A DNA stretch of 64,000 bases, taken from assembly GCA_020057555.1 (NCBI GenBank), contig JAGVFR010000001.1, forward strand, positions 3,062-67,061, written 5' to 3'. The DNA comes from a bacterium (lineage in GTDB: Bacteria > Patescibacteriota > Patescibacteriia > UBA9934 > GWF2-40-263). Position numbers and translations under genes: made by a program. The notes below the pieces were generated by a model, which was not told where the DNA came from, searched no databases, and saw nothing but the letters and a program-made list of their open reading frames with translations. Of the stretch, positions 25,824 through 53,340 are shown one piece after another (positions within the stretch are counted from its first letter, which is position 1; every line of letters starts with the position of its first letter).

Positions 25824-25930
25824 AAGTCGGATGGATAGCTGTGTTTCCGGGCCAGCGGACTCTTCGCCGCTGGTGTTGTCCGGTCTGGCTTTCAGCCAGA
25901 CATCGTCCAACACGGCTAACCATCCGACTT
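25824..25930. repeat. G+C-rich palindromic repeat element, copy 1 of 4 (longest copy; multi-hairpin)
   Basis: The outer stem is aagtcggatgg/ccatccgactt. The core is TTTCCGGGCCAGCGGACTCTTCGCCGCTGGTGTTGTCCGGTCT. An internal perfect hairpin is gtctggc-tttca-gccagac. It sits in an AT-rich spacer between the GT2 and O-antigen-ligase-like genes. Confidence 0.75.
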
Positions 25931-25941
25931 AAACGAATTGT

Positions 25942-27489
25942 ATGATTGATCAATTTTTTTGCAAAACATTTTATTTGTCACTTTGTGCCTTGTTTGTTTT
26001 ATTTTTGATTTCGTTGTTTTCATATTTTTTTAGTGGCTCATTGTTTTTCATGATCGCGATAGCTTTAATCACGATTTCTGTTTGCGCGTATAATCCAACT
26101 TTTGGACTTCTCGGAGTTTTTCTTGAATTATTTTCAAGTCCGCACGGTCATCTTATCTCAACTGAATTGTTTTCATTTGATGTCTCATTAAGAATGACAG
26201 TCTTTATAGGATTTTTTATTGGATATATTTTTTTCTTACTAAGAACAAAACAAAAACTTTCAATTTCATCAAAGAATTATTTTCCATTTTTGATTTTAGC
26301 AGTTGCAATTGCAATCGGTTTCATATTTGGCTTTCTCTCAAACCATGCAGTGAATGTTTTTAAAGATGGAAATGCATATTTTTACCTGCTGTACGTTTTT
26401 CCAATTCTTTCAATCAATTGGGATTCAAAGGCGAAAAGACAAATTCTTCAAGTTTTTACAGCTGGAGCTGTGTGGAATATTTTGCTTTCATTTTTGATTC
26501 TTTATTTTTTCACGCACGTTTCTGAACCGTTAATAAAAGTAAGCTATATCTTTTTAAGAGATATTCGATTGGCTGAAATAACTAATCTCGGCGGATCGCT
26601 TTATCGTGTTTTTATTCAAACTCAATTTTTTTCATTGGTGTTTGGAGCCTTCATCCTTGCATTAATTCCTAAAATTCAATCAAGACGCGAAACGATTCAA
26701 GCAACGGTTTTATTGAGTGCAGTGTTTGCAACTCTAATTTTAAGTTTATCAAGAAGTTTTTGGATTGGAATAATATTTGCACTTTTTGTTCTTGTATTTT
26801 TTCTGTATCGGTATTACAAAAAGGAGATAAGACTGAAATCTTATCTAATTTGTCTTTTGAGTTCTGTTGTTTTATCAGTGTTACTTATTGTGACTATAGT
26901 TTTGTTTCCATTTCCGACTCAACGCGTAGGAGGAAGCGATTTATCTGATTTGTTTGTAAAACGTTTTACTCAAAATGATGATGTGGCAATCTCTAGTCGA
27001 TGGAAATTACTTGATCCAATGTTACAAACAATCTCAATAAATCCAGTAATTGGAAATGGTTTTGGAAAAGAAGTTACTTTTGAAACAGATGATCCAAGAG
27101 CTAGAGATATTCGTTCTGATGGAAAGTGGTCAACTTATGCAATGGAATGGGGGTGGATGGAATTGTGGCTTAAAATGGGTATTCTCGGGCCTGTTGGTTT
27201 TTTGTTTTTGTTCGTATACATAAATAAGCGCCTGATGACGCTTATGAAATCTGAACACTCTTGGATTTCAATTGGATTGATTTGCGGTTTGTTTTTTCTT
27301 TTTGCAACTCACATATTTTCCCCGTATCTCAATCATCCGATTGGCCTAGGATTCATTCTTTTTACAATCATTTTCATTCCAAAGGAATCCGAATCTTTTG
27401 CTATTCAAAAATCTTTCCAATCCAATCCTTCCGTCCAGCAAGAAATGCCTTTGCCTGCATCGGCGCTTTCCCTTCGGGCTGAAGAGTGA
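25942..27489 (+). CDS. O-antigen ligase/polymerase-like multi-TM membrane protein
   Basis: 515 aa, more than 10 TM, with a large periplasmic loop (RVGGSDLSDLFVKRF...). It ends the glycan locus. Its 3' end overlaps fmt convergently by about 89 nt. Confidence 0.55.
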   Translation: MIDQFFCKTFYLSLCALFVLFLISLFSYFFSGSLFFMIAIALITISVCAYNPTFGLLGVFLELFSSPHGHLISTELFSFDVSLRMTVFIGFFIGYIFFLLRTKQKLSISSKNYFPFLILAVAIAIGFIFGFLSNHAVNVFKDGNAYFYLLYVFPILSINWDSKAKRQILQVFTAGAVWNILLSFLILYFFTHVSEPLIKVSYIFLRDIRLAEITNLGGSLYRVFIQTQFFSLVFGAFILALIPKIQSRRETIQATVLLSAVFATLILSLSRSFWIGIIFALFVLVFFLYRYYKKEIRLKSYLICLLSSVVLSVLLIVTIVLFPFPTQRVGGSDLSDLFVKRFTQNDDVAISSRWKLLDPMLQTISINPVIGNGFGKEVTFETDDPRARDIRSDGKWSTYAMEWGWMELWLKMGILGPVGFLFLFVYINKRLMTLMKSEHSWISIGLICGLFFLFATHIFSPYLNHPIGLGFILFTIIFIPKESESFAIQKSFQSNPSVQQEMPLPASALSLRAEE

Positions 27490-28342
27490 TGAGTTCCAGA
27501 GCTTCAGAATTAACCGCAACTATAATTTTCTCTTGATTTTCACACAAAGTTCCGTTTGGTTTATTTAAATTCGTTTGTGTAACTTTGGCTTCCAAGATCT
27601 TTACTCTTACTCGCTCGTCATTTATTTTAATTGTTGTCCAAGCTGTTGGCCATGGAACAAAAGCGCGAATCATTCTTTCAATACTTTTTGCATCAGAATT
27701 CCAATTTATCAAACCATCTTTTTTTGACAGTAATCGCGACACACTTGCTTCTTGATTATTTTGATCTGAAGGCATGCAATTTTCGTTTACGTACGATCGC
27801 AAAACATCACACAAAAATTTTGGTCCAATTGAATGGATTTTCAATTCTAGCGAAATCGTAGTTTCGTTTTCTGATAGCTCAAGAGTTTTTTGAGCAAGAA
27901 TTGGACCTGTGTCCATTCCTTCATCGAGAAGCATAATTGAAATTCCTGTTTTTTTATCTCCATTCAAAATTGCTGACTGCATTGGTGAAGGGCCTCTGTA
28001 TTTTGGTAAAAGTGAAGGATGAACATTCACAACACCTTTTGGTGGGATGTTTAAGATTGAACTTGGAATTAACTTCCCATATGCAACAACAACAAAAATA
28101 TCAGAGTGAAATGATGATAGTGTTTCAACTGCTTCAGTTTTTTTTAGACTTTGAAATTGCATGACAGGAATGTTTTTTTGTTCAGCAAAAATCTTAACTT
28201 CAGGTGATGTAATTTTTCCACCACGACCAGATGGCTTATCAGGTTGCGTAACAACACAAGCAACATTAAAATCACTCTCATTAGTGAGAGCTTCAAAAAA
28301 AGGAACAGCGAACGCAGGTGTGCCAAAGAAAACAATTTTCAT
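27401..28342 (-). CDS. fmt: Methionyl-tRNA formyltransferase
   Basis: MKIVFFGTPAFAVP..., the formyltransferase core (NVHPSLLPKYRG), and a C-terminal domain. Confidence 0.9.
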   Translation of the reverse strand: MKIVFFGTPAFAVPFFEALTNESDFNVACVVTQPDKPSGRGGKITSPEVKIFAEQKNIPVMQFQSLKKTEAVETLSSFHSDIFVVVAYGKLIPSSILNIPPKGVVNVHPSLLPKYRGPSPMQSAILNGDKKTGISIMLLDEGMDTGPILAQKTLELSENETTISLELKIHSIGPKFLCDVLRSYVNENCMPSDQNNQEASVSRLLSKKDGLINWNSDAKSIERMIRAFVPWPTAWTTIKINDERVRVKILEAKVTQTNLNKPNGTLCENQEKIIVAVNSEALELITLQPEGKAPMQAKAFLAGRKDWIGKIFE

Positions 28343-28344
28343 GT

Positions 28345-28827
28345 TTAGATATTTTTATGATCCGTAAATCTTATAGTCTTATCTATGAAAAGAATTCCAT
28401 TTAAATGATCAATCTCATGTTGAAACACAATAGCAGGGAAACCCTTCAACTTAATAGAAACTTGTTGCGCATTCTCATCATAAGCTTGGACAATTACTCC
28501 TCTATATCTTCGCACGATTCCATACACACCCGGAACTGACAAACAACCTTCTTCACGTTCAATTTTTCTAAGCGAGTGTTTGACAACTTTTGGATTGAAA
28601 AATGCTTTTGGACCTGACTCGGTCTCGATAATAATAATTTGTTTTTGAACACCAATTTGAGGAGCTGCAATTCCAACCCCGTTTTCTTCATTCATTGTTT
28701 CCTTCAAGTCCTCAATCAGTTCTAGTGTTGACTCGCTATTTATTTCATCAACTTCAACAATTTGCGAAACTTTTCGCAATTCCTTGTTTGGATGTGTGAG
28801 AACTTGAATTATCATATGGAATAACAT
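28345..28827 (-). CDS. def: Peptide deformylase
   Basis: Motifs GVGIAAPQIG, EGCLSVPG and QHEIDHLNG. Confidence 0.9.
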   Translation of the reverse strand: MLFHMIIQVLTHPNKELRKVSQIVEVDEINSESTLELIEDLKETMNEENGVGIAAPQIGVQKQIIIIETESGPKAFFNPKVVKHSLRKIEREEGCLSVPGVYGIVRRYRGVIVQAYDENAQQVSIKLKGFPAIVFQHEIDHLNGILFIDKTIRFTDHKNI

Positions 28828-28831
28828 TCTG

Positions 28832-30637
28832 TCATGAAAAAGCGTTTATGTCAATAAGAAAATGATCGCCTAAGTCACCGAGTATTTTTAGAACTTCTTC
28901 AGAACGCGAAAAGGGAACTCGAATCACAAATTCCGATGTTACACGAACACCTTGTATGTTTTCGAGCTGTTGCTTCAGTGCGTTCGTTTGCAATTCACGC
29001 TTTCTATCTTCTGCTTCGCGAATCTTGATTTGTATCCATTGTTCAAACGGAGGTTGTTGAAATGATAATCTTCTTGCATTTTCTTCCGTGAACATTTTCA
29101 TAGGATCGTGAATGTATTGTTCAAAAAATTCTTGTTCTTCAGTTTGCACCACAAATTTTGCGTGATTAGCTCGCGCCAAACCCATCCATTCATAAAAATA
29201 CATTGAAGCTTGTTCGGCACTTCTAAAACTTGGTGAAAACAACGGCAGGTCAGCGTCAAGATATACCACACATTGAAAAAGATTATCTTGGGAAGGATCA
29301 AAATTATTTTCGATAAAAGCGCGTGTTGCAAGAGTTATAATTACGTCAGGATCGAAACTAATTTGTTGAGCATCTATGTGCTGTATTGAAGAAGTCGTAA
29401 ATATTTTTTTTAATATTTCAACAATTCGGCCGCTTCCAAATCCTCTAAATTCAATTTTTGACGAACGACATTGCGTGCAACGCAAAGGCAATGGATCAAT
29501 GATCTCACAACGAATGCATGTTAAAGTTTGTTCATCAACACGAACAAGATGGCCGCATCTTGAACAAACAAATACATGGCCGCAATCTTTGCAGCGCAGT
29601 CTCCATGCGTAACCTTTTTTATTTAAAATGATCAGGACATGACCTTGTTGTTCGATCGTTTCTGAAATTACCTCAATTGTTGATGATACAATTGCAACAT
29701 GTTCTGAAACAGATTTCTCAACTGATGGACGAACGAACTTTACTTTTAGTTCAGAATTGAATAACAAAATATTTTCTTCCTTAAATCTATATATGTCGTC
29801 GACTCTTGGTAATACATCGAAAAAAAATAGTTGCGTTGTAAACTTTTGCGAAAATAAATATACTACTTCTCTTGCGTCGATTCTTGGATTGCGTCTGTGT
29901 TCGACATGATTTTGATGTCCTGATCTCACAACGATGACAGTGGTTGTAGGAGCGTCACAAAAAAATATTCCTGCGCGCGTTGTTATAAGTAGACCGGTTG
30001 GATTTTCCCTGTAAGATTTCCAAGCTGAATATCTTTCATCATTTGATTCTTCTCCTGTAACACAAAGTGGTGAAAAAGATCCAAGATACTTTGATACTAT
30101 TCTTGCGTCACGAACATTCGGACACAGAATTGCAATTTTCTGTTTTGGTTTTTCATATAAAAATCTGGCAATGATTGCACAAGTACGCCTAAGATCGAAA
30201 GCTTGAACAAATCCGATGCGTCTTTCTGTCATTGCGTTTGCCAGCCTAACGATTGTTGCGCTTTCTTGATTTGGGACTGTAAGAGTAGTAACAGGCAGGT
30301 TGTTTTCTGTTTTTTCAGAGTTTGATTTTTTTGGGCGAGGGAATGCAGTATAAAGAAGAGTAGAAACTGATTGAGAAATTGATTTCGAAACTGATTCAAA
30401 AAATGAGAGTTCTTCATCTCTCAATTTGATTTCCTCGAAAACAGATAAAACATTTTTAAGGATGATCCCTCTCAACGCTTGTTCTTTAACTCGTTTAACA
30501 ATTCCCAAACACTGACTTGACCTAAAGGGAATTAAAACAAATTGTCCGCGCTCGAGTGATATTTCGTTCGGAACGGAATAGTCAAAGTGACTAAATTTTC
30601 GCGGCATTCGTCTAAGTGGATAAATTTCCGCGATCAT
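28832..30637 (-). CDS. priA: Primosomal protein N' (PriA)-like, with a 3'-DNA-binding N-terminus and a Cys-rich zinc region but apparently degenerate helicase motifs
   Basis: The N-terminus FDYSVP...GQFVLIPFRSSQ..GIV matches the PriA 3'BD. The Cys-rich region is CKDCGHVFVCSRCGH...CIRC...CTQC. No GxxxxGK[ST] or DExH box was found where expected (QAFDLRRT and VVRSGHQNH instead). Confidence 0.65.
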   Translation of the reverse strand: MIAEIYPLRRMPRKFSHFDYSVPNEISLERGQFVLIPFRSSQCLGIVKRVKEQALRGIILKNVLSVFEEIKLRDEELSFFESVSKSISQSVSTLLYTAFPRPKKSNSEKTENNLPVTTLTVPNQESATIVRLANAMTERRIGFVQAFDLRRTCAIIARFLYEKPKQKIAILCPNVRDARIVSKYLGSFSPLCVTGEESNDERYSAWKSYRENPTGLLITTRAGIFFCDAPTTTVIVVRSGHQNHVEHRRNPRIDAREVVYLFSQKFTTQLFFFDVLPRVDDIYRFKEENILLFNSELKVKFVRPSVEKSVSEHVAIVSSTIEVISETIEQQGHVLIILNKKGYAWRLRCKDCGHVFVCSRCGHLVRVDEQTLTCIRCEIIDPLPLRCTQCRSSKIEFRGFGSGRIVEILKKIFTTSSIQHIDAQQISFDPDVIITLATRAFIENNFDPSQDNLFQCVVYLDADLPLFSPSFRSAEQASMYFYEWMGLARANHAKFVVQTEEQEFFEQYIHDPMKMFTEENARRLSFQQPPFEQWIQIKIREAEDRKRELQTNALKQQLENIQGVRVTSEFVIRVPFSRSEEVLKILGDLGDHFLIDINAFS

Positions 30638-31422
30638 AAAATGTGGAATTGCGCGACCAAATATCCAACTCCAAACGGTGCTTCGTAAGACAGATTCTCT
30701 GCACGAACTTTTAGTTGATCAATAATTCCAAAAAGTATCAGCATTGGCCTAAGCGCGCATTCAGATGCTTTTTCAAGACGCTCTTCATCAAATGAAAGTA
30801 ACTTTGAAATTGATTTATGTTCAATGGCACGAAGAATCATATCATCGAATTCTTTTCCTTCTTCATGAAATCCCATTGGAGCATCGCTTGAAAGACTATG
30901 AGACAAATCGCCTGATGCAATGACCGCAATTCTTTTGTGGCTTTGTTGAATCATTTCGTTTAAAAGGCGACCAAAAGCAACATGTTGTTTGCGATCTGTT
31001 CCACTGTACGAAATTGGAACAAGTCGTGGCTTAATTTCATCGTTAAGAAGAAAAAGAGGAACACCACATCCATAATCTAGCGACGCATGTGATTCAAGCA
31101 CAAAAGAAATTGATTGTTTTCGTGCTTCACTTTGAATAGCAGAAATGAGTTCTAGATCAGGAACAAATTCCATTGATGTTGAAAGATCGCCGAATTCATG
31201 AAATTCAACAACATACTGGTTGTGAAGATTCAATGTAAAAGCTTTTTCGTGCATGAAGCTGTGAGAAGAAACAACTAAAATTATATCAGGTTGACTTAAT
31301 TTTAATTCGTCTGATAATTTTTTCATTGCCTCTCGTGTTTGAGTCAATTGTTTTATGTTTTCTTTTCCAATTGAATCTATAAGAAGAGGGGAATGTGGTG
31401 TGAATGCCGCAAAGCAAATCAT
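30634..31422 (-). CDS. LigB/Memo-superfamily (class III extradiol dioxygenase-like) protein
   Basis: Starting at MICFAAFTPHSPLLI (a PHSP motif near the N-terminus) and ILVVSSHSF, the protein resembles the DODA/LigB/Memo family. The assignment is tentative. The start was chosen at the internal Met 31422 to avoid a 50-nt overlap; the ORF track's longer form extends to 31473. Confidence 0.45.
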   Translation of the reverse strand: MICFAAFTPHSPLLIDSIGKENIKQLTQTREAMKKLSDELKLSQPDIILVVSSHSFMHEKAFTLNLHNQYVVEFHEFGDLSTSMEFVPDLELISAIQSEARKQSISFVLESHASLDYGCGVPLFLLNDEIKPRLVPISYSGTDRKQHVAFGRLLNEMIQQSHKRIAVIASGDLSHSLSSDAPMGFHEEGKEFDDMILRAIEHKSISKLLSFDEERLEKASECALRPMLILFGIIDQLKVRAENLSYEAPFGVGYLVAQFHIL

Positions 31423-31423
31423 A

Positions 31424-32857: not shown

Positions 32858-32872
32858 GACCCTATAATAACG

Positions 32873-35554: not shown

Positions 35555-35557
35555 ATT

Positions 35558-35678: not shown

Positions 35679-36476
35679 ATGAGTGAAAAACATAAAATTT
35701 TCGGAGTAGCTTTTGATGATATTTCAACAAATGAAATGACTGATTTGTTTTTGAAATGGCTAAACGGATCGCAGGGAAAAATTATCTTCACACCAAACCC
35801 TGAATTTTTATTAAAAACACGAGTTGATTCAGGTTTTGGAAACTTGTTGAACCAGAGCGATCTTTCACTTGCTGATGGTATTGGCGTAAAATTTGCGATT
35901 GTCGCACTCACAGACAAACGACTTAAACATCGTCATACAGGTGTTGATACACTTGTTCAATTAGCAGAGATTTGTTCAAAGACAAACAAAAAATTGGTTT
36001 TATTGGGTGGAAAAAATTCTGTATCACAATCCGCCGCAGACGCACTAAGAAAACAATTTCCAAATCTTCAAGTTCAATCAATCGACCTTGGTTTTATTTT
36101 AGGAAATTCAGAAACTGTTTCAATTTCAGATGAACTAATCAATGAGATAAATAAATTTTCACCAAACGTGCTCGCTGTTGCATTATCTTTTGGAAAACAG
36201 GAAAGGTTTATTTTTAAAATCAGCAAACAAATCCCCTCTTTAAACATTGTAATTGGAGTTGGCGGGGCGCTTGATACAATTTCTGGCAGTCTTAAACGAG
36301 CGCCACTTTGGATGCGCAAAAATGGGCTTGAATGGCTTTGGAGAGTTATAATTGAACCAAGACGTATTGTAAGAATTTTTAGAGCAACAATCGTCTTTCC
36401 GTTATTTGTGGTTTGGGATACACTTAAACATCAGAGGTTTTGGAAAGCTGTGATAAAAGTAGTAGTAAGTAGCTAG
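35679..36476 (+). CDS. WecB/TagA/CpsF-family glycosyltransferase
   Basis: FTPNPEF...ADGIGV...NGLEWLWRVIIEPRRIVRIF is the family signature. Confidence 0.8.
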   Translation: MSEKHKIFGVAFDDISTNEMTDLFLKWLNGSQGKIIFTPNPEFLLKTRVDSGFGNLLNQSDLSLADGIGVKFAIVALTDKRLKHRHTGVDTLVQLAEICSKTNKKLVLLGGKNSVSQSAADALRKQFPNLQVQSIDLGFILGNSETVSISDELINEINKFSPNVLAVALSFGKQERFIFKISKQIPSLNIVIGVGGALDTISGSLKRAPLWMRKNGLEWLWRVIIEPRRIVRIFRATIVFPLFVVWDTLKHQRFWKAVIKVVVSS

Positions 36477-36495
36477 TAGCAGGTATATTCGCTTT

Positions 36496-37953
36496 ATGAA
36501 CATCAAGACTCGTTTTCCGCCGTCTCCAACAGGATATCTTCATGTCGGATCGCTTCGAACAGCGCTATATAATTATTTTTACGCAAAAAAACACAACGGC
36601 ACATTTCTTTTGCGAATTGAGGATACTGATCGAGAGCGATATGTTGCAGGTGCTGTTGAGTCACTTATCGGGACTCTCGATCGAATGAAAATTGATTATG
36701 ATGAAGGTCCTGTGATGAAGAATGGGAAGATTGTTGAAAAGGGAGGTAATGGTCCTTATGCGCAATCTGCACGTCTTGAAATTTATAAAAAGTATGCAAA
36801 GCAACTGGTTGATTCAGGTTATGCATATCATTGTTTTTGTTCAAAAGAACGTCTTTCTGAATTGCGTGAACAACAACAAGAGATTAAACAAACAACAAAA
36901 TACGATCGTGCATGCTTAAAGTTGTCTTCTGAAGAAATTAAAACAAAATTAGAGTCTGGTGAGTCGAATGTTATACGAATGAAAATTCCAGAAGGGAAGA
37001 CAACTTTTCATGATGAAATTCGAGGTGATATAACAATCGAGAACCAAGAAAATGATGATCAAGTACTTCTCAAAGCAGATGGTTTCCCTACTTATCATTT
37101 AGCTGTTGTTGTTGACGACCATCTGATGGGCGTGACTCACGTCATTCGTGGGGAAGAATGGATTTCATCTGTTCCAAAACACGTCATGCTTTACACATGG
37201 TTTGGTTTTCCTCTTCCTACATTTGCTCATCTTCCATTGATTCTAAATACTGACAAATCAAAACTTTCAAAACGACAAGGAGATGTTGCTGTTGAAGATT
37301 ATTTTGCGAAAGGATTTTTAGAAGAGGCGCTTGAAAATTTTGTTTCACTTCTTGGTTATAATCCAACAGCTGATAGAGAAATATATACACGCGAAGAATT
37401 TATTGAACACTTTGAACTTACAAAAATTAACAAAAGTGGAGCGGTTTTTGATGTCAATAAACTCCTGTGGATGAATGGTCAGTACATAAAAATGCTTTCA
37501 GATGAAACTTTTGTCGCTAAAGTTAAGCCCTTTTTGAAAGGGGAAGTTGAGGACGATATTTTGCGACGCATCTGCGTGATTGAAAAAACAAGAATAAATT
37601 TATTATCGGAAATTACAACAGTAATCGACTCCTATCAATCAATAACGAATTTCTCGAAAGAAATGTTAGTATGGAAAAAATCAGACAGTGAAGACGCAAA
37701 ATTACAATTAAAAAATATTTTTGAATTTATATCTTCACTTGATGACTCGGTTTTCAATAACTTGGAATTGATTGAACAGGCCATTGCAGGGTATATTAAA
37801 GATAACGGACTTCAAAATGGAAATGTTTTGTGGCCGCTTCGTGTTTCACTTTCAGGAGCCGAACGATCTCCAAGCCCATTTGAATTGCTCTGGGTGCTTC
37901 AAAAACAAGAATCGATGAAACGTATTGAACATGCAATCAAAATTTTTACTTAG
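36496..37953 (+). CDS. gltX: Glutamate--tRNA ligase
   Basis: Class I HIGH motif (PSPTGYLHVGSLRTALYN) and KMSKS motif (KLSKR). Confidence 0.9.
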   Translation: MNIKTRFPPSPTGYLHVGSLRTALYNYFYAKKHNGTFLLRIEDTDRERYVAGAVESLIGTLDRMKIDYDEGPVMKNGKIVEKGGNGPYAQSARLEIYKKYAKQLVDSGYAYHCFCSKERLSELREQQQEIKQTTKYDRACLKLSSEEIKTKLESGESNVIRMKIPEGKTTFHDEIRGDITIENQENDDQVLLKADGFPTYHLAVVVDDHLMGVTHVIRGEEWISSVPKHVMLYTWFGFPLPTFAHLPLILNTDKSKLSKRQGDVAVEDYFAKGFLEEALENFVSLLGYNPTADREIYTREEFIEHFELTKINKSGAVFDVNKLLWMNGQYIKMLSDETFVAKVKPFLKGEVEDDILRRICVIEKTRINLLSEITTVIDSYQSITNFSKEMLVWKKSDSEDAKLQLKNIFEFISSLDDSVFNNLELIEQAIAGYIKDNGLQNGNVLWPLRVSLSGAERSPSPFELLWVLQKQESMKRIEHAIKIFT

Positions 37954-39355: not shown

Positions 39356-39423
39356 ATCTTATACGACACATAAGTTATTTTAAGCAAGAAATTGGTTTGC
39401 ATAAATTATGTGTCGTATAAGAT
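39356..39423. repeat. Long inverted repeat in a 283-nt intergenic spacer (18-bp perfect arms, extendable)
   Basis: atcttatacgacacataa (39356-39373) and ttatgtgtcgtataagat (39406-39423) are exact reverse complements. TACGACAC-like octamers recur at about 39435 and 39541. Confidence 0.8.
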
Positions 39424-43495: not shown

Positions 43496-43573
43496 CATGA
43501 GCTACAGCACACATGTCTCCGGGCCAGCGGACTCCTCGCCGCTGTTCCCTCCGACATGGTGCTGTAGCTCATG
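43496..43573. repeat. G+C-rich palindromic repeat element, copy 2 of 4
   Basis: Perfect 15-bp outer arms catgagctacagcac/gtgctgtagctcatg. The core is CATGTCTCCGGGCCAGCGGACTCCTCGCCGCTGTTCCCTCCGACATG. It sits between greA and lysS. Confidence 0.8.
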
Positions 43574-44053: not shown

Positions 44054-44086
44054 TCAAACCTACCGTTCTTAAGGATGTATGTCAAC

Positions 44087-45157: not shown

Positions 45158-45183
45158 AGGTTTATAGTTTACCATATCGGTCA

Positions 45184-45254
45184 TTTTGAGGTCGAACCAT
45201 GTCTCCGGGCCAGCGGACTCCTCGCCGCTGTTCCCTACGACATGATTCGACATC
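45184..45254. repeat. G+C-rich palindromic repeat element, copy 3 of 4
   Basis: The core is CATGTCTCCGGGCCAGCGGACTCCTCGCCGCTGTTCCCTACGACATG, flanked by tcgaac/gattcga arms. It sits between pilM and the YibE/F gene. Confidence 0.75.
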
Positions 45255-45286
45255 AAAATATAATGAAAAACAGCCTGAATTGGCTG

Positions 45287-46477
45287 TTACGAGAGAGTCA
45301 AGGTTCTCTTGGTGAAAGGAAACTTGATAGATATCGGAAGTTTGAATGGATTGCCCAGTAAGAAGCCTGAATACTTCGTGTCAGGTGGACAGAGATTGAT
45401 CCTGACGTCGTTCGCTCCGATCTTTGAATCGCCATTGAACCGTCTGGCAAGGCCGACTGCGACTGTTGCAAACGTTTCCATCTGACGAAGAAGTTCGAGG
45501 TCGAAATCGCGCGCATCAACACTGATGTTCTTGAATGGATTAACGAGCTCTACGGGAATTCTGAATCGCCGCTCACAAGCCCTGATAAAGGCGCTAGATT
45601 GCGACACACCTCCGCTTAAGTAAATCCGTGCGATGTCAGCTTTCATGGTAACTGCCGCGAAGTAGTCAAGAGATCGTTTTATCTCTGTGACGAATGTTTC
45701 CGATACGTGTTCCTCGAGCTTTCGCACTTCACAAAGCACAGAAGACGAGGAAATCGAATCGTCTTCTGATGTCTGGTAGTGCACTGCTTCTGCCCACGAA
45801 ACATTGAGCTGTTTCATTATCTCGGCGGTCAGAAACGTTCCGCCCATCGAGATCTCACGCGTAAAGGTTGTGATCCCGTTTGAGATCACATTGATACTGA
45901 TGCTTGAGGCACCAACATTGAAAAGAACAATGATCTCGTTTGAAGGACAGCTATAGTTCAGGTCGAACGAGTTCTGAACAGCGAACGTGTCAATGTCCAC
46001 GACTTCTGGGGAAAGCCCGGCTTCTCGAACCACATAAATATAGTCATTGACAACATCCTTTTTCGCGGCCACAAGCAAAACATCCATCTGTCCCTGATAA
46101 GCTTTGGGATTGAGGATTTGAACATCGATGTTGACTTTCTTTATGTCGAACGGGATGTACTGCTCTGCTTCCCAAATTATTGCCTCTCGCAGTTCTTCAG
46201 GAGTCATCTCTGGAATCGAGATCTTCTTGACGATAACTGAATGCCCTGACATCGAAATCGCGCATCGTGAACGTCCGCACTTATTAACTTTCACTAATTC
46301 GCGAAGTGTGTTGACAATCGCGTCGGGGTTCAACAGTGCCCCGTCAACAATGGTTTCCGGAGGCAACATGCAACTATCGAATTTGACGAGTTTGAGCCCA
46401 GTTCCAGTCTCTGCGAGCTGACACAGCTTGATTGAAGAAGATCCGATGTCCAGTCCAAGTAGTAATTTTCGTGACAT
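45287..46477 (-). CDS. pilM: Type IV pilus assembly ATPase-fold protein PilM (actin-like); orphan and G+C-rich
   Basis: The start is MSRKLLLGLDIGSSSIKL with AAAGGAG upstream. The actin/HSP70-fold motifs and PilM-like segments (EAEQYIPFDIKKVNIDVQIL, MDVLLVAAKKD) are present. No pilN/O/P/Q genes are adjacent. GC content is visibly higher than the flanks. Confidence 0.7.
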   Translation of the reverse strand: MSRKLLLGLDIGSSSIKLCQLAETGTGLKLVKFDSCMLPPETIVDGALLNPDAIVNTLRELVKVNKCGRSRCAISMSGHSVIVKKISIPEMTPEELREAIIWEAEQYIPFDIKKVNIDVQILNPKAYQGQMDVLLVAAKKDVVNDYIYVVREAGLSPEVVDIDTFAVQNSFDLNYSCPSNEIIVLFNVGASSISINVISNGITTFTREISMGGTFLTAEIMKQLNVSWAEAVHYQTSEDDSISSSSVLCEVRKLEEHVSETFVTEIKRSLDYFAAVTMKADIARIYLSGGVSQSSAFIRACERRFRIPVELVNPFKNISVDARDFDLELLRQMETFATVAVGLARRFNGDSKIGANDVRINLCPPDTKYSGFLLGNPFKLPISIKFPFTKRTLTLS

Positions 46478-46615: not shown

Positions 46616-47476
46616 ATGAAATTTCTCAAACCACTACTTATAATCATAGTTATTATACTTGCCTCCTATAGTCTGTTTGTTGCATTTCCACGCAAAGTAA
46701 ACGACAACAACTATCAAAAACCATCTGTTGCCGCGACAATCTTTCCTCTTTACGATATTGTAAAAAACATTGCTGGAAATGAAATTGACGTCTCTCTGAT
46801 TCTTCCTCCTGGCGCAAGCCCACATACTTTTGAACCAACTCCGACGATTTTGCGAGAAATGAAAAAAGCCCAAACTGTTTTTATGATCGGTCATGGAATA
46901 GATGATTGGGCAAAAAGTTTAGTTGAAGATTCGAACAAAATTTTAGCTGTTGATAATGGAATTACTCTTCGTCCAAATGACCCTCATTATTTTTTAACAG
47001 GAGAAAACGCGATCCTGATTTCACAAACCGTTGCAGATTCTCTTATATTGGCACTTCCAAATTTAACAGGTTCAATTAGTGAAAATCAAAAAAAATATCA
47101 AATAGAACTAGAAAAAATGAATGAACAAATTAAAACAGAATTATCTAAAGTAAAAAATCGCGAACTCATTACTTTTCATGATGCGTGGTATTATTTTGCA
47201 GAGGCATACGGGTTGAACATCGTTGGAACATTCGAACCAAGTGTTGGCCGTGAACCAACACCGCAATATCTCGCAAAACTTTCACAGAAGATAAAAGAGA
47301 CTGGCGTTCGCGTTCTTTACGCTGAACCACAATTCTCAACACGAGGCATTGAAGCATTCTTGAATGACAACAATGTATCTGTTGTAATAATTGACCCAGA
47401 AGGTGGAGGTGTCGAGTCTACTTCATTTATAAACTTGATGATTTCAAATGCGCGAACAATTGCAAAAAACCAATAA
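46616..47476 (+). CDS. Metal (zinc/manganese) ABC transporter substrate-binding protein (ZnuA/TroA family)
   Basis: The signal peptide is LLIIIVIILASYSLFVA. The cluster-9 SBP motifs are PPGASPHTFEPTP and FHDAWYYFAEAYGL. Confidence 0.8.
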   Translation: MKFLKPLLIIIVIILASYSLFVAFPRKVNDNNYQKPSVAATIFPLYDIVKNIAGNEIDVSLILPPGASPHTFEPTPTILREMKKAQTVFMIGHGIDDWAKSLVEDSNKILAVDNGITLRPNDPHYFLTGENAILISQTVADSLILALPNLTGSISENQKKYQIELEKMNEQIKTELSKVKNRELITFHDAWYYFAEAYGLNIVGTFEPSVGREPTPQYLAKLSQKIKETGVRVLYAEPQFSTRGIEAFLNDNNVSVVIIDPEGGGVESTSFINLMISNARTIAKNQ

Positions 47477-47486
47477 TCAACATCCG

Positions 47487-48194
47487 ATGATACAAGTCAA
47501 AAATCTTTCGGTTGTTTATGGTCATCAAACAATTTTGTCTCATGTTTCATTTGATGTGAAACATGGCGAAATCGCCGCGGTAATCGGCCCAAATGGCTCT
47601 GGAAAAACGACGCTCATTCGCGCGATTTTAGGTTTAATACCTTTCGATGGAGAAATTTTGATTGATGGTCAACTTCCTTCACACGTTCGCTCGCATGTCG
47701 GATACGTTCCACAAAGATTTCGTTTCGACCCAGACTTCCCAATCACAGTTAGAGAATATCTTGATCTGTCAAAAACGCATGTTCATAAATATGAGTACGC
47801 GCACAAACTCAAAGAAGTTGGTCTTGAAACTTCCATTCTTCATAAACCTCTTGGTTCGCTTTCCGGCGGACAACTTCAACGCGTTTTAATCGCGCAAGCG
47901 ACAATCGATCATCCAACTCTTCTTATTTTAGACGAACCTTCAACTGGAATCGATATCGTAGGTGAAGAACAATTTTACGAACTTCTCAAATCACAACGCG
48001 ACCAACACGGAACAACAGTTATTCTTGTGTCACATGATATTGCTGTTGTTTCAAATGTTGTAGATCAAGTCATTTGCGTGAATAAACGTCTTGTTTGTTT
48101 TGGGCCGCCAAGACAAGCACTCACGCAAGAAAAACTCTCCGAGTTGTACGGGAAAAAAGACGCATCGCTTTATTCTCATCACCATCACAATTAA
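47487..48194 (+). CDS. Metal ABC transporter ATP-binding protein (ZnuC-like) with a C-terminal His-rich tail
   Basis: Walker A is GPNGSGKTT, the signature is LSGGQLQR, Walker B is LLILDEP. The C-terminal tail is SHHHHN. Confidence 0.85.
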   Translation: MIQVKNLSVVYGHQTILSHVSFDVKHGEIAAVIGPNGSGKTTLIRAILGLIPFDGEILIDGQLPSHVRSHVGYVPQRFRFDPDFPITVREYLDLSKTHVHKYEYAHKLKEVGLETSILHKPLGSLSGGQLQRVLIAQATIDHPTLLILDEPSTGIDIVGEEQFYELLKSQRDQHGTTVILVSHDIAVVSNVVDQVICVNKRLVCFGPPRQALTQEKLSELYGKKDASLYSHHHHN

Positions 48195-48196
48195 AT

Positions 48197-48997
48197 ATGG
48201 AACTTCTTGAATTCCTACAATACCCATTCATGCAACGCGCGCTTGTCGCTGGAATTTTGCTTGGCGTGCTTCTTGCTACTCTTGGCGTGTTTGTGACTTT
48301 AAGAAGAATGGCTTTTTTTGGTGAAGGGATAGCCCATGCTTCACTTGCGGGAATTGCGATTGGAATTCTCACAGGATTTAGTCCATTGCCGGTTGCTATG
48401 ATCTGGGCAGTCATTCTTGCTCTTCTTATTTTTACACTTGAACAAAAAACAAAACTTCCTATTGACACAGTGATCGGAATTTTTTTTACATCAGCAATGG
48501 CGCTTGGTGTTGTTTTGATGAATTTCACTTCTGGATATCAACCTGAACTTCTTTCATTTTTGTTTGGAAGCATTCTTTCTGTTTCGATTTCTGACCTTTG
48601 GACTATCGCCATATCAACAATTGTAATTCTTATTTGGCTAATTTCCTCACGAAGACAACTCACGTTTCTTTCTTTATCAGAAGAACAAGCGATTGTAAGT
48701 GGAATTCCAGTTCGTTTACAAACAGCGATTCTTTATGTCGCACTTTCTGTCGCAACTGTTCTTGGAGTAAAAATCTTGGGAATCATTCTTGTGTCAGCGC
48801 TTCTTATTATTCCTCCAGCGATTAGTCGATTGCATGCAAAAAGTTTTCGCTCGCACATGATTCTCGCGGTTTTATTTTCAGAAATTATAATTATACTCGG
48901 CTTGGCGCTTTCATTTTTTTATGATCTACCATCAGGCGCAGTAATTGTTTTGGTTGGTGCATTTCTATTTTTACTATCACTTCTTTTTTCACATTGA
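48197..48997 (+). CDS. Metal ABC transporter permease (ZnuB-like)
   Basis: About 8 TM. FFGEGIAHASLAGIAIG is typical of ZnuB/TroCD permeases. Confidence 0.8.
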   Translation: MELLEFLQYPFMQRALVAGILLGVLLATLGVFVTLRRMAFFGEGIAHASLAGIAIGILTGFSPLPVAMIWAVILALLIFTLEQKTKLPIDTVIGIFFTSAMALGVVLMNFTSGYQPELLSFLFGSILSVSISDLWTIAISTIVILIWLISSRRQLTFLSLSEEQAIVSGIPVRLQTAILYVALSVATVLGVKILGIILVSALLIIPPAISRLHAKSFRSHMILAVLFSEIIIILGLALSFFYDLPSGAVIVLVGAFLFLLSLLFSH

Positions 48998-49024
48998 TCG
49001 GAAGTTTTTTGTTCTGTCTTTTTT

Positions 49025-50926
49025 TTATTTTTCAGTAAACCACCAATATAAAATTTCTCTTGCGAGTGGAACTGCGGCGTCAGTACTTTCTCCTCCATCT
49101 TCAACAATAATTGCGATCGCGATTTCTGAATTCTCGTACGGAGCAAAACCAGTAAACCAAGAATGGTACTTTTCATGTCCTGGTGCTTGTGCTGTTCCAG
49201 TTTTTCCTGCCACAGACACTGGAAGTCCAGACAATGAACGTGCACTTCCTTGAGTCACTGTTTGTCGCATTCCTTGTTTCACAACAGAAAGGGCGTATGA
49301 ATCAAGCGACTTAAGTGTTTGATATGAAGTTTCATTTGTAACTTCATTCATTTTTTTGACTACATGCGGCACGAAATCCAAACCGTTGTTCGCTATAATT
49401 CCAGTCGCGTGCGCCATCTGAAGTGGTGTTGTTAACAAATCGCCTTGTCCAATCGCAAGATGATATGTATCTCCAACATACCAACGTTCTCCTTTTTCTT
49501 TCTCCTTCCATTCTTTTGAAGGCAAAAATCCATCAGCTTCTGATGGTAAATCAATCCCTGCTGGTTTTCCAAATCCAAAACGTCCTGCATAATCTGTAAT
49601 CCTATCAACGCCCAAACCGTTAATTTGATCAAGTCCGCCACCGATAATATAAAAAAAAGTATTCACTGATTCAGCAAGTGCCTTTCTAACATTTGTAATT
49701 CCGTGTCCACCAGCTTTCCAATCAGGAAAAAACCATTCATTAATTCTTATTCCTCCTGTTGAAAGAAAAGATGTGTTTTCAGAAATTATTTTTTCAACCA
49801 ATGCCGCATAAGCGACAAATGGTTTGAAAGTCGAACCAGATGGAAACTCACCTGCAATTGCTCTGAAAAATAATGGCAGATCCGGATCTTCAGCTAACTT
49901 TTGATAAGTGTCTTCCTCAATTCCCTGCGCGAATAAATTATTATCAAAAGTCGGTAAACTCACGAGCGCGTAAACTTCACCGTTTTTTGGATTTAATACA
50001 ACAACAGAACCTTTTGTTGAGCCAACTGACTTCATCGCATTTTCAAGTCGTTTTTCAATGAACTTTTGGAATTCAGAATCAACTGTCAAAGTTATATTTG
50101 AACCAACATCAGGATCAGTACGCGACACAACTGATAGTTCCCTACCCCTTGCGTCAACTTCAGTAACAATCTCGCCAGGTTGACCGCGCAATAAAATTTC
50201 TTGCGATCGTTCAACTCCTGTCTTTCCAATAACATCAATTGGTTTGTAACCTTTTTCTTTCCACAAAGAAAGATCTTCTAAAGTCATTTTTCCAGTGTAA
50301 CCTAGTATATGCGAAAGTGAAGGAATTGTTTGAGGATATCTACGCAGAGTTGAAGTTTGTAAATTAAAACCTGGAAGGTTTTTGATTTCAATTGCTAAAT
50401 GCATGGCGCGTTCAAAATTTATATTTCTTTTTACCGGAACAGCTTCAGTTTGATTTTTCGCATATTGCGTCATTAACAGATCCAAATCCGTTGGTTGAAT
50501 TCCAGCTAATTTGCTTACAGAATCAAATAATTCATAACGTTCGTTTTCGTCCGTTGGCAAATCTGCGATCGTCATTGTTAAAACAAAAGAAGGAATATTT
50601 TCCGCAAGTACAATGCCATGTGTATCAAAAATCAAACCTCGTTGTGGAACAAGACGTTCAGTTCGATATCTATTTGATTCTGCGAGCGCTCGAAAATGAT
50701 CTCCTTGAAAAATTTGCAGTTGAACTGAGCGACCCAAAAAAACGATTAACATTAGAAAAAATACAACTTGCGCAAGACGTATTCGCCAAAATGTAATCAC
50801 TGATCCAATACATCGAGTGTTTGGAAGCTGTTCGAAAATCGTAACACCACTTCGATCCGTGAGTTTTCCAATTGGTCCGTTCTCCTGCAAAACGAACAAT
50901 CTAGAATGTGGTGATTGATTTGACAT
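49025..50926 (-). CDS. mrdA: Penicillin-binding protein 2 (elongasome transpeptidase)
   Basis: The N-terminal TM helix and PBP dimerisation domain are present. The transpeptidase motifs are SGSTFKP (SxxK), SxN and KTGTAQ. It lies directly downstream of mreBCD. Confidence 0.85.
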   Translation of the reverse strand: MSNQSPHSRLFVLQENGPIGKLTDRSGVTIFEQLPNTRCIGSVITFWRIRLAQVVFFLMLIVFLGRSVQLQIFQGDHFRALAESNRYRTERLVPQRGLIFDTHGIVLAENIPSFVLTMTIADLPTDENERYELFDSVSKLAGIQPTDLDLLMTQYAKNQTEAVPVKRNINFERAMHLAIEIKNLPGFNLQTSTLRRYPQTIPSLSHILGYTGKMTLEDLSLWKEKGYKPIDVIGKTGVERSQEILLRGQPGEIVTEVDARGRELSVVSRTDPDVGSNITLTVDSEFQKFIEKRLENAMKSVGSTKGSVVVLNPKNGEVYALVSLPTFDNNLFAQGIEEDTYQKLAEDPDLPLFFRAIAGEFPSGSTFKPFVAYAALVEKIISENTSFLSTGGIRINEWFFPDWKAGGHGITNVRKALAESVNTFFYIIGGGLDQINGLGVDRITDYAGRFGFGKPAGIDLPSEADGFLPSKEWKEKEKGERWYVGDTYHLAIGQGDLLTTPLQMAHATGIIANNGLDFVPHVVKKMNEVTNETSYQTLKSLDSYALSVVKQGMRQTVTQGSARSLSGLPVSVAGKTGTAQAPGHEKYHSWFTGFAPYENSEIAIAIIVEDGGESTDAAVPLAREILYWWFTEK

Positions 50927-51430
50927 TTAATAATAACGATTATGTGAAGATAAAAACATAACTTGTACAATTTTTCTGATATGAGGTGCGAGTGAAAATA
51001 AAACTGCAACAACAACTATCAACATTCCAAGTCGCTCCGCGTGAGTTTGAAAAAATACTGACCAGTTATTTAATGTAAAGAAAACTCCAAACAAAACAAA
51101 CGTTGCATAACTACTTATTGCACAAGCAATAACACCGTAGAAAGATCGATTTGAAAAAAGTTGCTTTGAAGTAATTACTGCAACGACCGTTGCCGCGAAA
51201 ATAGGGATTATTGAAAAAGAAATATCGCCTAATTTCATCAAATCCATAAGAAATCCGTAACCTATCAACCACGCAATTCCGTCTGAAATTCCTTGATGCT
51301 GAATTAAATAAACACTCAAGGCAAATACGAGTGGAATCGCAGAAAATAATGAAGGAAGCGAACTTATAAAACTTGTTTCAATAAGAAACACAATTAGAAA
51401 CAAAATTGTCGAAATCGCTACACGTGTCAT
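50927..51430 (-). CDS. mreD: Rod shape-determining protein MreD
   Basis: 167-aa polytopic membrane protein between mreC and mrdA. The call rests on position and topology only. Confidence 0.55.
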   Translation of the reverse strand: MTRVAISTILFLIVFLIETSFISSLPSLFSAIPLVFALSVYLIQHQGISDGIAWLIGYGFLMDLMKLGDISFSIIPIFAATVVAVITSKQLFSNRSFYGVIACAISSYATFVLFGVFFTLNNWSVFFQTHAERLGMLIVVVAVLFSLAPHIRKIVQVMFLSSHNRYY

Positions 51431-52170
51431 ATTTCTTTTTGAATAAGAACTTGAACTGAAGTGTGCAAGCGTGAATCTACCAATGGTTCAATCACGGCTT
51501 CCAAAAACGGTGCATTTGGTTCTGGACGAACATCATTGATAATTCCAACAAGCAAACCCGAAGGAATGCGTGGTTCAAGACCAGAGGTCACAACAAGATT
51601 ATCAATTTCAATAACTGTTTCTTGCGGAATAAAATTTAATTTTAACAAATTTCCTGCCATTCCTTCTGCAACTCCAATTGTTTGAGATTGGTTTAACAAG
51701 CTGACTGCGGTTGCAACAGCAGGATCAGAAAGAGTTCTAACTGTTGAACTTTTTTGCGTTACTGAAATTACTTTTCCAATTAGTACCCCATCTTTTACAA
51801 TCACCGGATCTCCGACTTTAATCCCATCCTGCTCCCCACGATCAATTGAAAAGGTTGAAGTCTGGATCGTGTTGGATCGTGCAATAATAGTTGCCATTAT
51901 AGATGTCAAATCAGACCTTTCAATATAACCTAAAACCTCTTTCAACTCCTGATTTTCCTGAATGAGCTGTTCATATTTTGCTTTATCAATTGAAAGAGCA
52001 ACCAAACGACGCTCCAATTCTTCTTTGTTTGGCTGTTTGTAAAACCATGTACCAGCTTGTGCTAATGGTCGTTGAATAATTTGAATTCCACGCTCAAACC
52101 AGCCTCTTGCAAAAATTAGTAATATCACAATTGCTATTACAGTAAGAGATAAGTGAGCGCGACGTTTCAT
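51427..52170 (-). CDS. mreC: Rod shape-determining protein MreC
   Basis: An N-terminal TM helix, a coiled coil (KAKYEQLIQENQELKE), and a beta-barrel region (VVTSGLEPRIPSGLLVGII). Confidence 0.8.
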   Translation of the reverse strand: MKRRAHLSLTVIAIVILLIFARGWFERGIQIIQRPLAQAGTWFYKQPNKEELERRLVALSIDKAKYEQLIQENQELKEVLGYIERSDLTSIMATIIARSNTIQTSTFSIDRGEQDGIKVGDPVIVKDGVLIGKVISVTQKSSTVRTLSDPAVATAVSLLNQSQTIGVAEGMAGNLLKLNFIPQETVIEIDNLVVTSGLEPRIPSGLLVGIINDVRPEPNAPFLEAVIEPLVDSRLHTSVQVLIQKEI

Positions 52171-52175
52171 ATAAT

Positions 52176-53228
52176 CTACAAGATATTTCCTTCAGTTGCT
52201 GAAGGAAGCGAAATGTCTTTGAGTAAATCCTCTTGATCAAGCAGAAAACCAGCTCCGCGAACAACTGATGTTAGTGGATCATCAGCAATTCGAACCGGAA
52301 TCGCGGCTTGACGCGAAATTAATTTATCCAGTCCACGAAGAAGCGCTCCGCCACCAGTTAAAACAATTCCACGCTCATAAATATCAGCCACAAGTTCAGG
52401 AGGAGTTGTTTCAAGCACAGCTTTAATGCTATCAACAATTGTTCTAATTGAACGCTCCAATGCTTCACGGATTTGAGTATCGTTCACAATAATTTCCTTT
52501 GGAAGTCCTGTAAGTAAATCCCTTCCGCGCATTTCCATTTCAAGAGGTTCGTCTTGTTCGATCGCGGTTCCTATTCTCATTTTTACTTTTTCTGCAACGC
52601 GTTCACCCAAAAGTAAATTAAACACATCGCGGGCGTATTGAATAATATTTTTGTTCAATTCGTCACCGGCAATTGGAAGCGACTTCCATGTAACAATTCC
52701 AGCAAGTGACATAACAGCGATTTCTGTTGTTCCGCCACCAAGATCAACAATCATCATTCCAACTGATTCTGAAAGCGGAAGTCTTGCGCCAAGTGCCGCA
52801 AGCATAGGATTTTCAACAAGAAAAACTTGACGAGCTCCAGCAGAAAGTGCGGCATCCTCGATTGCTTTGCGTTCCACTTCTGTTGTTTCAAGTGGAACTC
52901 CAATTACAATTCGTGGACGAGGAACAATTGTAAATGACTCTGAATGAACCCTGTCAATAAAATATTTGAGCATTTTTTCAGTGACTTCAAAATCGGAAAT
53001 CACACCTTTGGTCAACGGCTTTGTCATTTCAATATGCGGTGGATTTTTTCCAAGCATGTCTTTTGCATCTTTTCCTACAGCTAAAATTTGATTTGTACGA
53101 ATATTGATAGCGACAATCGAAGGTTCATTTACAACAATTCCACCGTCTTTTGAATAAACGAGAGTATTCGAAGTACCAAGGTCGATTCCAAGGTCTTTTG
53201 AAAAGCGTCCAAAAAACTTGTTGAACAT
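52176..53228 (-). CDS. mreB: Rod shape-determining protein MreB
   Basis: LGIDLGTSNTLVY...VNEPSIVAI. The actin fold is present throughout. Confidence 0.95.
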   Translation of the reverse strand: MFNKFFGRFSKDLGIDLGTSNTLVYSKDGGIVVNEPSIVAINIRTNQILAVGKDAKDMLGKNPPHIEMTKPLTKGVISDFEVTEKMLKYFIDRVHSESFTIVPRPRIVIGVPLETTEVERKAIEDAALSAGARQVFLVENPMLAALGARLPLSESVGMMIVDLGGGTTEIAVMSLAGIVTWKSLPIAGDELNKNIIQYARDVFNLLLGERVAEKVKMRIGTAIEQDEPLEMEMRGRDLLTGLPKEIIVNDTQIREALERSIRTIVDSIKAVLETTPPELVADIYERGIVLTGGGALLRGLDKLISRQAAIPVRIADDPLTSVVRGAGFLLDQEDLLKDISLPSATEGNIL

Positions 53229-53254
53229 ATAAACCTGTAATCGTTGAAGAAGCG

Positions 53255-53340
53255 ATTTGCACCATGTCTTCGGGCCAGTGGACTCCTCGCCGCTGGTGTT
53301 GTCCGGTCTAGTCCTCGACTCCCTGCGACATGATGCAAAC
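53255..53340. repeat. G+C-rich palindromic repeat element, copy 4 of 4
   Basis: The core is CATGTCTTCGGGCCAGTGGACTCCTCGCCGCTGGTGTTGTCCGGTCTAG...GACATG, with flanking arms ttgcac/atgcaa. It sits upstream of mreB. Confidence 0.75.

Follow-up and report, generated by a model that had tools for sequence, protein, structure and literature searches.

Apparently Undescribed REP-like Interspersed Palindromic Repeats in Candidatus Uhrbacteria

The closest described systems to the elements considered here are the repetitive extragenic palindromic (REP) elements and the bacterial interspersed mosaic elements (BIMEs), which are found together with the REP-associated tyrosine transposase (RAYT, also TnpA_REP), for example in E. 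coli (PMC8266576). In REP elements, the palindrome is directly preceded on its 5′ side by a conserved tetranucleotide, usually GTAG (PMC8266576), and REPs, BIMEs and the REP doublets forming hairpins (REPINs) are thought to spread via a folded single strand (PMC3116915, PMC8266576). In the present work, we examine four hairpin-forming intergenic elements in a 64-kb stretch of bacterial DNA (GenBank assembly GCA_020057555.1, contig JAGVFR010000001.1, positions 3,062 to 67,061; this whole stretch is called the window below), and compare them with copies in related genomes. We will show that whole hairpins have been gained or lost between close relatives at permissive intergenic sites, mainly behind genes, that the apex of the hairpin has been inverted, and that apexes and modules have been exchanged. 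The four elements probably represent an interspersed repeat of Candidatus Uhrbacteria that forms hairpins, is non-autonomous and resembles REP, BIME and REPIN sequences. The family is apparently undescribed, as a full-text literature search did not find it, or such elements in any bacterium of the candidate phyla radiation (CPR). What is new is that the theme of the interspersed extragenic palindrome is varied here in a CPR lineage, by a mechanism that we infer.

Like the REP/BIME elements, the Uhrbacteria hairpins are short imperfect palindromes with conserved bulges that are extragenic and present in many copies. They occur in either orientation and mostly behind genes, form mosaics with other motifs (here composites of ~250 nt in relatives of the window), and are probably recognised as a single strand. 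Unlike them, they have no GTAG-type tetranucleotide at the foot, where various bases precede the closing stem on its 5′ side (GCAC, GTAC, ATGC, AGCT, GAAC and others) and the outer foot has only a loose preference for GAGC/GCTC. The unit is also larger (80-110 bp), with a conserved apex and a variable base, and the host is a CPR bacterium. The REPINs of Pseudomonas fluorescens (PMC3116915) share with the present family a long hairpin as the replicative unit, common compensatory changes, an extragenic location and presence/absence dynamics. However, their two conserved 16-25-mers form the outer ends while the spacer near the tip varies, whereas the Uhrbacteria hairpins combine an invariant tip with variable outer stems; nor have flips in orientation or swaps of the apex been described for REPINs. 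Since the GTAG-type motif is absent, RAYT was not found in limited sequence, and the REPIN gradient is reversed, membership of the REP family is not established.

Three other systems were considered. Miniature inverted-repeat transposable elements (MITEs) are likewise small and structured intergenic elements without coding capacity, and their insertions are polymorphic between relatives, but they have conserved terminal inverted repeats and target-site duplications, while the Uhrbacteria termini are the least conserved part and a duplication is not evident. Small inversions in non-coding plastid DNA (PMC6824564, PMC6005162) also involve a short segment that is bounded by inverted repeats and found in either orientation in related genomes. 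These are, on the other hand, loops confined to one locus each and a few to some tens of bases long, without conserved sequence or a dispersed family. TIGR arrays, finally, consist of tandem units with box C/D-like motifs beside a Nop-domain Tas gene (PMC12045711). The TIGR-Tas systems can be dismissed here, as the copies are dispersed singly, the apex lacks UGAUGA/CUGA, and there is no Tas-like gene in the window annotation.

Hairpin structure and the copies in the window

The window was searched for the 24-nt core GGGCCAG(C/T)GGACTC(C/T)TCGCCGCTG, allowing up to 3 mismatches. Four matches were found, at 25849, 43521, 45207 and 53272, every one on the plus strand, compared to an expectation of 0 from 100 shuffles. 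The same four copies make up the top family in a direct-repeat scan of the window. No fifth copy was detected in the 64 kb with a hidden Markov model (HMM) of the core or with a covariance model run with filters off, the extra matches of the latter being reverse-strand shadows only. A preliminary description of this DNA had listed four plus-strand copies with a shared core, in agreement with both the core search and the unfiltered covariance model, and the conserved unit is in fact longer than the core given there. It is an apex of 47 nt, (C)CATGTC-TCC-GGG-C-CAGCGG-ACTCCTCG-CCGCTG-TT-CCC-TCC-GACATG(G), that folds into a nested imperfect hairpin made asymmetric by an internal loop (T-N-C/T-N-C), by C and TT bulges and by the loop ACTCCTCG. 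Inverted repeats specific to each copy lengthen the helix to 77-113 nt. The complementary outer arms quoted previously are correct but reach further. The window hairpins fold far better than shuffled sequences, with z-scores of −3 to −9.5 as RNA and −4 to −10 as DNA, and their G+C content is 51-59%, compared to 35-41% for the background.

Among 27 distinct short-type copies (351 pairs), the mean identity is 93% for the apex and 37-45% for 15 nt of each arm. Copies 2 and 3 of the window, for example, have apexes that are 98% identical on unrelated arms. The outer arms were aligned without gaps, because the MAFFT arm alignment was mis-registered. In this alignment, 88% of the cells of 31 proposed pairs are paired, compared to 37-53% for slid partners and 73.5±0.9% for shuffles, and 20 of the 31 pairs have double-sided changes. 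The inner 21 pairs are 93.8% paired, with double changes in 10 pairs, and their covariation score of 0.253 can be compared with 0.107±0.009 for shuffles (0/500 as high) and at most 0.088 for slid structures. The inner stem covaries as well, occurring as CAGCGG/CCGCTG, CAACGG/CCGTTG and CAGTGG/CCACTG. It is important to note that the copies are kin sequences, and the shuffle figures are thus not probabilities; in view of how many pair types occur and of the slid controls, however, the hairpin structure is secure. The arms follow the consensus GAGC-N-GTTTG-N-AC and fall into shared subfamilies, which means that they are related by descent rather than arbitrary. These results confirm that the elements constitute a real family with a conserved structure and strongly covarying arms, as was proposed earlier. 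The topology of HDV-like or other pseudoknotted ribozymes is excluded on inspection, since all helices are nested, and a coding role of the ATG-containing apex is excluded by its variation, which is non-synonymous and compensatory.

A stable conserved fold with covariation is also what speaks for a family of independently transcribed small non-coding RNA genes, one of the candidates named previously. A UUCG-capped hairpin on the plus strand of a 40-nt insert found in some relatives (see below) and a TATAAT-like box upstream of one arm subfamily point in the same direction. The sequence outside the hairpin is, however, not conserved family-wide and contains no common promoter or terminator, the density reaches one copy per 3 kb, and copies lie within operons only 6-21 nt from the next start codon. 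The strand evidence is also conflicting, as the UUCG cap belongs to the plus strand and the better pairing to the minus strand. As to known classes, Rfam gave no family at the gathering threshold for the window, with only noise in E-value mode, and matched only tRNAs in 19 related loci; a tRNA/tmRNA search found none. We consequently regard discrete RNA genes as highly improbable. The family provides a caution for non-coding RNA discovery, namely that palindromic repeats at the DNA level can yield strong covariation.

We now turn to the individual copies. Copy 1 (25821..25933, plus strand) is a 113-nt hairpin with arms of 25 nt (25821-25845 / 25909-25933) that are 92% complementary, situated with a GT2 glycosyltransferase gene on one side and a Wzy_C gene on the other, both on the plus strand. 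Its apex is reduced to the 5′ half, and 39 nt from the beginning of an optional 3′ module (25873-25911) have been fused by a deletion to the 3′ closing stem. Copy 2 (43496..43573, plus strand) is a 78-nt hairpin with a canonical short apex (43511-43558) between the arms CATGAGCTACAGCAC (43496-43510) and GTGCTGTAGCTCATG (43559-43573). It occupies the spacer between greA and lysS, both on the minus strand, with the lysS start codon 13 nt away. Copy 3 (45183..45259, plus strand; 77 nt) has its apex at 45197-45243 and the arms ATTTTGA.GGTCGAAC / ATTCGAC.TCAAAAT, and lies between the pilM terminator (45269-45288, minus strand) and a yibE-family gene. Copy 4 (53246..53349, plus strand) is a 104-nt hairpin with arms, AAGAAGCGATTTGCACC / GATGCAAACTGCTTCTT, of the most frequent arm subfamily. 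Its apex (53262-53330) includes a 24-nt remnant of the 3′ module and a G.T pair in CAGTGG/CCGCTG. This copy lies upstream of mreB (minus strand), between a small membrane protein gene and mreB, and downstream of a canonical terminator (53432-53451, minus strand). Both copies 1 and 4 carry GTGTTGTCCGGTCT(G/A)G after CCGCTG. This extended right half, which had been recognised as common to two copies, is the beginning of a 90-nt optional module that is whole in relatives.

All four copies are located between co-directional genes, as previously stated. The common plus-strand orientation is also real, but it does not hold relative to transcription: copy 1 is found among plus-strand genes and copies 2-4 among minus-strand genes, which means that the same element strand is sense once and antisense three times. 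The neighbours (GT2, Wzy_C, greA, lysS, pilM, yibE, mreB) are ordinary housekeeping genes with 35-41% G+C and no signs of acquisition, contrary to the earlier suggestion of G+C-rich acquired neighbours, and thirty further open reading frames (ORFs) of the window were also annotated as housekeeping. No transposase or recombinase is present among the annotated window ORFs, and the copies are accordingly non-autonomous.

The G+C-rich stems in an A+T-rich genome could suggest Rho-independent, possibly bidirectional, terminators that share a hairpin by chance, and many copies of the relatives indeed lie between convergent genes with A-runs and T-runs at the foot. However, a U-tract on the transcribed strand is absent from all four window copies, while T-runs are present in some relatives' copies. 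Furthermore, lysS, the yibE-family gene, mreB and the Wzy_C gene start 6-35 nt past the foot of the hairpin, such that a promoter would not fit, and separate canonical terminators adjoin copy 3, copy 4 and the copy at L002 (L numbers designate the sequences from outside the window). Independent terminators would also not have a common 47-nt apex with 93% identity. This explanation is therefore very unlikely, and the terminator role suggested for the window copies, two of which (3 and 4) directly follow canonical terminators, is not upheld.

Distribution, turnover and exchange in relatives

Further copies were sought by a pattern scan of one genome per species, a metagenome scan, application of the core HMM to the fetched flanks, and a scan of viral contigs. 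The pattern scan gave ten copies of the same architecture in three metagenome-assembled genomes (MAGs) of Candidatus Uhrbacteria, the metagenome scan ~25 more, mostly from groundwater samples, and the core HMM about ten more diverged ones, while the viral contigs contained none. The family thus amounts to ~45 copies in the three Uhrbacteria MAGs and groundwater metagenome contigs, and the search for additional copies proposed earlier finds them in Uhrbacteria only. The window itself belongs to the Uhrbacteria lineage, as its GreA shares 92% identity with the GreA of a metagenome contig and 84% with the one encoded in an Uhrbacteria MAG.

The window has 4 copies in its 64 kb, and relatives reach 4 copies within 11-13 kb. 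All ~45 copies are outside long ORFs, with ~14 between convergent, 17 between co-directional and 4 between divergent genes according to crude ORF calls, and thus mostly at gene 3′ ends. Such a distribution matches that of elements which, like REPs, are tolerated behind genes.

Sequences that match the 24-mer but lack the hairpin (L001, L005, L009, L014, L021, L027, L028 and L031) do not belong to the family. The pattern scan gave three such matches in Verrucomicrobia, apparently within coding sequence. The core occurs, without hairpin, in a sequence that is conserved among L001, L005 and L009 (soil Verrucomicrobia MAGs) and L014, L027 and L028 (unlabelled metagenome contigs) and is apparently coding. 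In L028, two inverted matches to the 24-nt core lie ~200 nt apart, possibly as a palindromic assembly artefact.

The syntenic loci of relatives, retrieved via GreA homologues, allow the turnover of the copies to be followed, with the polarity of insertion and deletion assigned by parsimony from few relatives. Copy 3 is a clean insertion of ~84 nt, with the pilM terminator on one side and a TGGTAAA-TATAA box before the next gene on the other, and it is missing in L038, L040, L045 and L046. A comparison of the filled and empty sites shows no clear target-site duplication, at most an ambiguous TA/AT, and the arms are not duplications of the target site, a possibility that had been raised at the outset. 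Copy 4 lies within an indel of ~160 nt that L040 lacks. The greA-lysS spacer, which contains copy 2 in the window, differs between relatives: the two genes overlap in L041, L045 and L046, the L044 spacer has no element, and L040 has a copy of a different apex type in the opposite orientation. In L038 and L039, only a short hairpin is present there, resembling the 5′ arm joined to the outer 3′ arm. In L038 (6357-6380) it reads TGATGCG-ATTGAAC-CGCATCA, with the 5′ arm (..TTGAACC) directly on the outer 3′ arm, and may have been left behind when a former copy lost its centre, the polarity at this site being ambiguous. The greA-lysS spacers of L038 and L044 also contain CTAC-rich runs, which will be mentioned again below. 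Upstream of znuA, conversely, L038 has a copy and the window has none.

One arm subfamily, together with a leader of ~17 nt, is common to three different loci, namely the znuA copy of L038, the greA-lysS copy of L040, and L010, which is the orthologue of window copy 1. This indicates that the whole hairpin moves as a unit. We have also considered that the arms could be copied from the target flanks, or could themselves be palindromes that pre-existed at the target, but this is contradicted by the empty site of copy 3 and by the arm subfamilies at different loci. Products of decay are seen as well, in the form of copies 1 and 4, a partial copy in L011 and the remnant in L038.

In addition to the gain and loss of whole hairpins, parts of them are exchanged. 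At the site of copy 1, the element in the window derives from the long type by deletion, while the orthologues L030 and L010 have a short-type apex in the opposite orientation. L017 and L020 have flanks that are 94% identical, yet the 90-nt module is present in one of them only. The apex can be of type A or type B on the same arms. Moreover, a G+C-rich insert of 40 nt, CCTACGCCGGCCATAGCCGGCTTCGGCCGGCGACGGCCGG, which contains the GCCGGC-TTCG-GCCGGC hairpin, is 100% identical in nine copies with differing arms (L016, L024, L025, L029, L032, three in L033, and L037). It is located at the same point of the apex, after TCCGG, with CCGG on both sides, and all nine copies are on contigs of one metagenome, Ga0265296. 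The apex is thus homogenised or replaced faster than the arms diverge.

In the relatives, the hairpin also occurs inside composites of ~250 nt with exchangeable centres, which are closed by a covarying outer inverted repeat of 21-25 bp (GATCGT..CTGTTC / GAACAG..ACGATC). Such composites, containing either the apex hairpin or other hairpin modules, are found in L017 (3335-3610), L032 (12600-12850), L024, L025 and L015/L036, with RNA fold z-scores of −8.7 to −9.8. The window has none. Their organisation is a BIME-like mosaic.

Orientation and proposed mechanism

On the plus strand, the arm mismatches of the whole family are 54 A.C versus 23 G.T, and the opposite, minus strand consequently folds better in 34 of 42 copies. 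The conserved unpaired bases T-N-C/T-N-C of the plus strand are G-N-A/G-N-A on the minus strand. At co-directional sites, the orientation relative to the flanking genes shows no bias (7 sense versus 10 antisense). Local GC skew is likewise unrelated to the orientation (18 negative versus 25 positive), which gives no support to a replication-linked orientation. The asymmetry in folding thus tracks the apex, and neither the direction of transcription nor the GC skew. It should be noted that the mismatches have shared ancestry, so that the strand counts carry limited weight. In the four window copies, the arm mismatches could be read as G.U pairs of the mRNA-sense strand, but this rule broke down on the 42 copies. 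Similarly, the C-to-T change reported for copy 4 is present (CAGTGG/CCGCTG), but the conclusion drawn from it, that the plus strand is the transcribed RNA, is outweighed by the mismatches of the family and by the random orientation relative to genes.

The apex lies in opposite orientations with respect to the flanking genes at three orthologous sites: window copy 1 versus L030 and L010, L003/L012 versus L032, and L015/L036 versus L037. In extracts oriented by the apex, the flanks align here in reverse complement. An assembly artefact is unlikely to be behind these flips, because the arms of at most 27 bp are below typical final assembly k-mers. The same contigs from different samples agree in orientation (L015=L036, L017=L026), and the orientation differences in this dataset are between species only.

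With inverted repeats of 20-27 bp around an apex that is inverted at three sites, an invertible DNA switch could be envisaged, in which the arms are recombination sites and flipping of the apex toggles a function, as in invertons. An invertase was not found nearby, however, the 47-nt segment has no promoter, and the agreement between samples is not what such a switch would suggest. The flips are also accompanied by changes of apex type, which indicates replacement rather than switching, and small inversions bounded by hairpins arise passively as well, as in plastomes (PMC6824564). Of the explanations considered here, this is the one that we find least credible.

The interspersed repeat of the REP/BIME/REPIN kind that we favour would instead be spread and homogenised via a folded single strand. 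The dispersed intergenic copies, their presence or absence between relatives, the shared subfamilies, the decay products, the mosaics and the random orientation all argue for this. Of the three candidates named in the preliminary description, the REP- or MITE-like element fits best, being multi-copy, intergenic, polymorphic in presence between close relatives, and mosaic. The unit would be an imperfect palindrome of ~80-110 bp with the near-invariant 47-nt apex, whose basal 15-20 bp need only be self-complementary. Its folded single strand, either as single-stranded DNA at the replication fork or as RNA, would be recognised by a trans-acting enzyme, and strand transfer, gene conversion or template switching at the foot of the hairpin may then copy or replace the apex. 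The palindromic foot would let either strand take the apex, resulting in randomised orientation and flips; passive inversion between the arms, as seen for plastid hairpins (PMC6824564), is an alternative route to the flips. Effects on the host, such as partial termination, protection of mRNA 3′ ends or insulation of cistrons, would be by-products.

A number of results weigh against this mechanism. A mobilising enzyme was not found: six-frame ORFs from ~340 kb of Uhrbacteria DNA, searched by phmmer with the E. coli RayT as query, gave no credible match, and a search of the neighbouring ORFs gave no recurrent transposase-like ORF adjoining the copies, both searches being underpowered. There is neither a clear target-site duplication nor a target motif, and the ends, which are conserved in MITEs, are here the most variable part. 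Full-length identity is never seen between copies at different loci, so there is no sign of a recent burst. Finally, the apex at orthologous sites is kept far better than the flanks (3/47 differences between L003 and L012, compared to a flank divergence of ~24%), which requires either ongoing homogenisation or host selection, and not simple selfish decay. A domesticated RNA or protein-binding role is therefore a live rival.

In this rival explanation, the hairpin is a host-selected cis-acting RNA that protects the 3′ end of the upstream mRNA, attenuates read-through or insulates cistrons, with the apex binding a host protein. The conservation of the apex well above the flanks, the abundant compensatory changes and the preference for gene 3′ ends fit well with such a role. 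The unpaired G-N-A/G-N-A and a GAGGAG on one strand resemble a defined single-strand motif, and it is this same strand that folds better in the majority of copies quoted above. In several relatives, AAA-hairpin-TTT flanks are reminiscent of bidirectional terminators. On the other hand, the random orientation relative to the transcribed strand, flipped even between orthologues, means that transcripts carry complementary apexes at different sites. Copies 2-4 are dispensed with in close relatives at essential genes such as lysS and mreB, and, as discussed above, U-tracts are absent from the window copies and canonical terminators precede copies 3 and 4. We consider this explanation, taken by itself, rather unlikely. 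The two overlap, however, in that an element that first spread and was then domesticated would show both sets of properties.

Another option, which we regard as doubtful and offer as a speculation, is that the 47-nt apex behaves as a cassette, which a system for strand transfer or gene conversion, specific to the foot of the hairpin and not yet known from CPR bacteria, copies or exchanges from one hairpin to another. Such a system would account at once for the identical apexes on unrelated arms, the type swaps and flips at orthologous sites, and the above-neutral conservation of the apex. The apex may in addition be a single-strand binding motif for a host protein (the G-N-A/G-N-A loop and GAGGAG).

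CPR/Patescibacteria genomes of ~1 Mb are regarded as streamlined and poor in repeats, and dense, dynamic palindromic repeats would add to the plasticity of such a genome. The family would put hairpins in many operons, where termination and mRNA stability might be affected, and could be used as a marker for strain typing. An invariant tip on covarying stems, with flips in place and module swaps, would also be a tractable case for studying how palindromic repeats are copied and homogenised, a question that is open even for the classical REPs.

Other features of the window

The longest palindrome of the window, at 39356-39423, is unrelated to the hairpin family. It is an A+T-rich inverted repeat of 32 nt, 84% complementary with a 4-nt spacer, between the convergent genes of an M23 peptidase (plus strand) and an FtsQ-like protein (minus strand), and may be a bidirectional terminator.

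The orientation of the genes changes from plus to minus at ~27.4 kb, and the cumulative GC skew has its maximum at 26-28 kb. Terminus-like converging replication would fit this, but so would genes that are simply strand-biased.

An ORF of 662 aa at 1939-3924, amid housekeeping genes, has a TrwB_AAD_bind domain (type IV coupling protein) and a long low-complexity C-terminal tail. Directly after this TrwB-like gene, at 3937-4012, there is a hairpin with a GTAG-rich repeat, GTAGTAGGTAGTAAGTAGCAGG, a 76% similar copy of which is located at 36462-36503. The CTAC-rich runs in the greA-lysS spacers of L038 and L044 are like this repeat, which may thus represent a second type of intergenic repeat.

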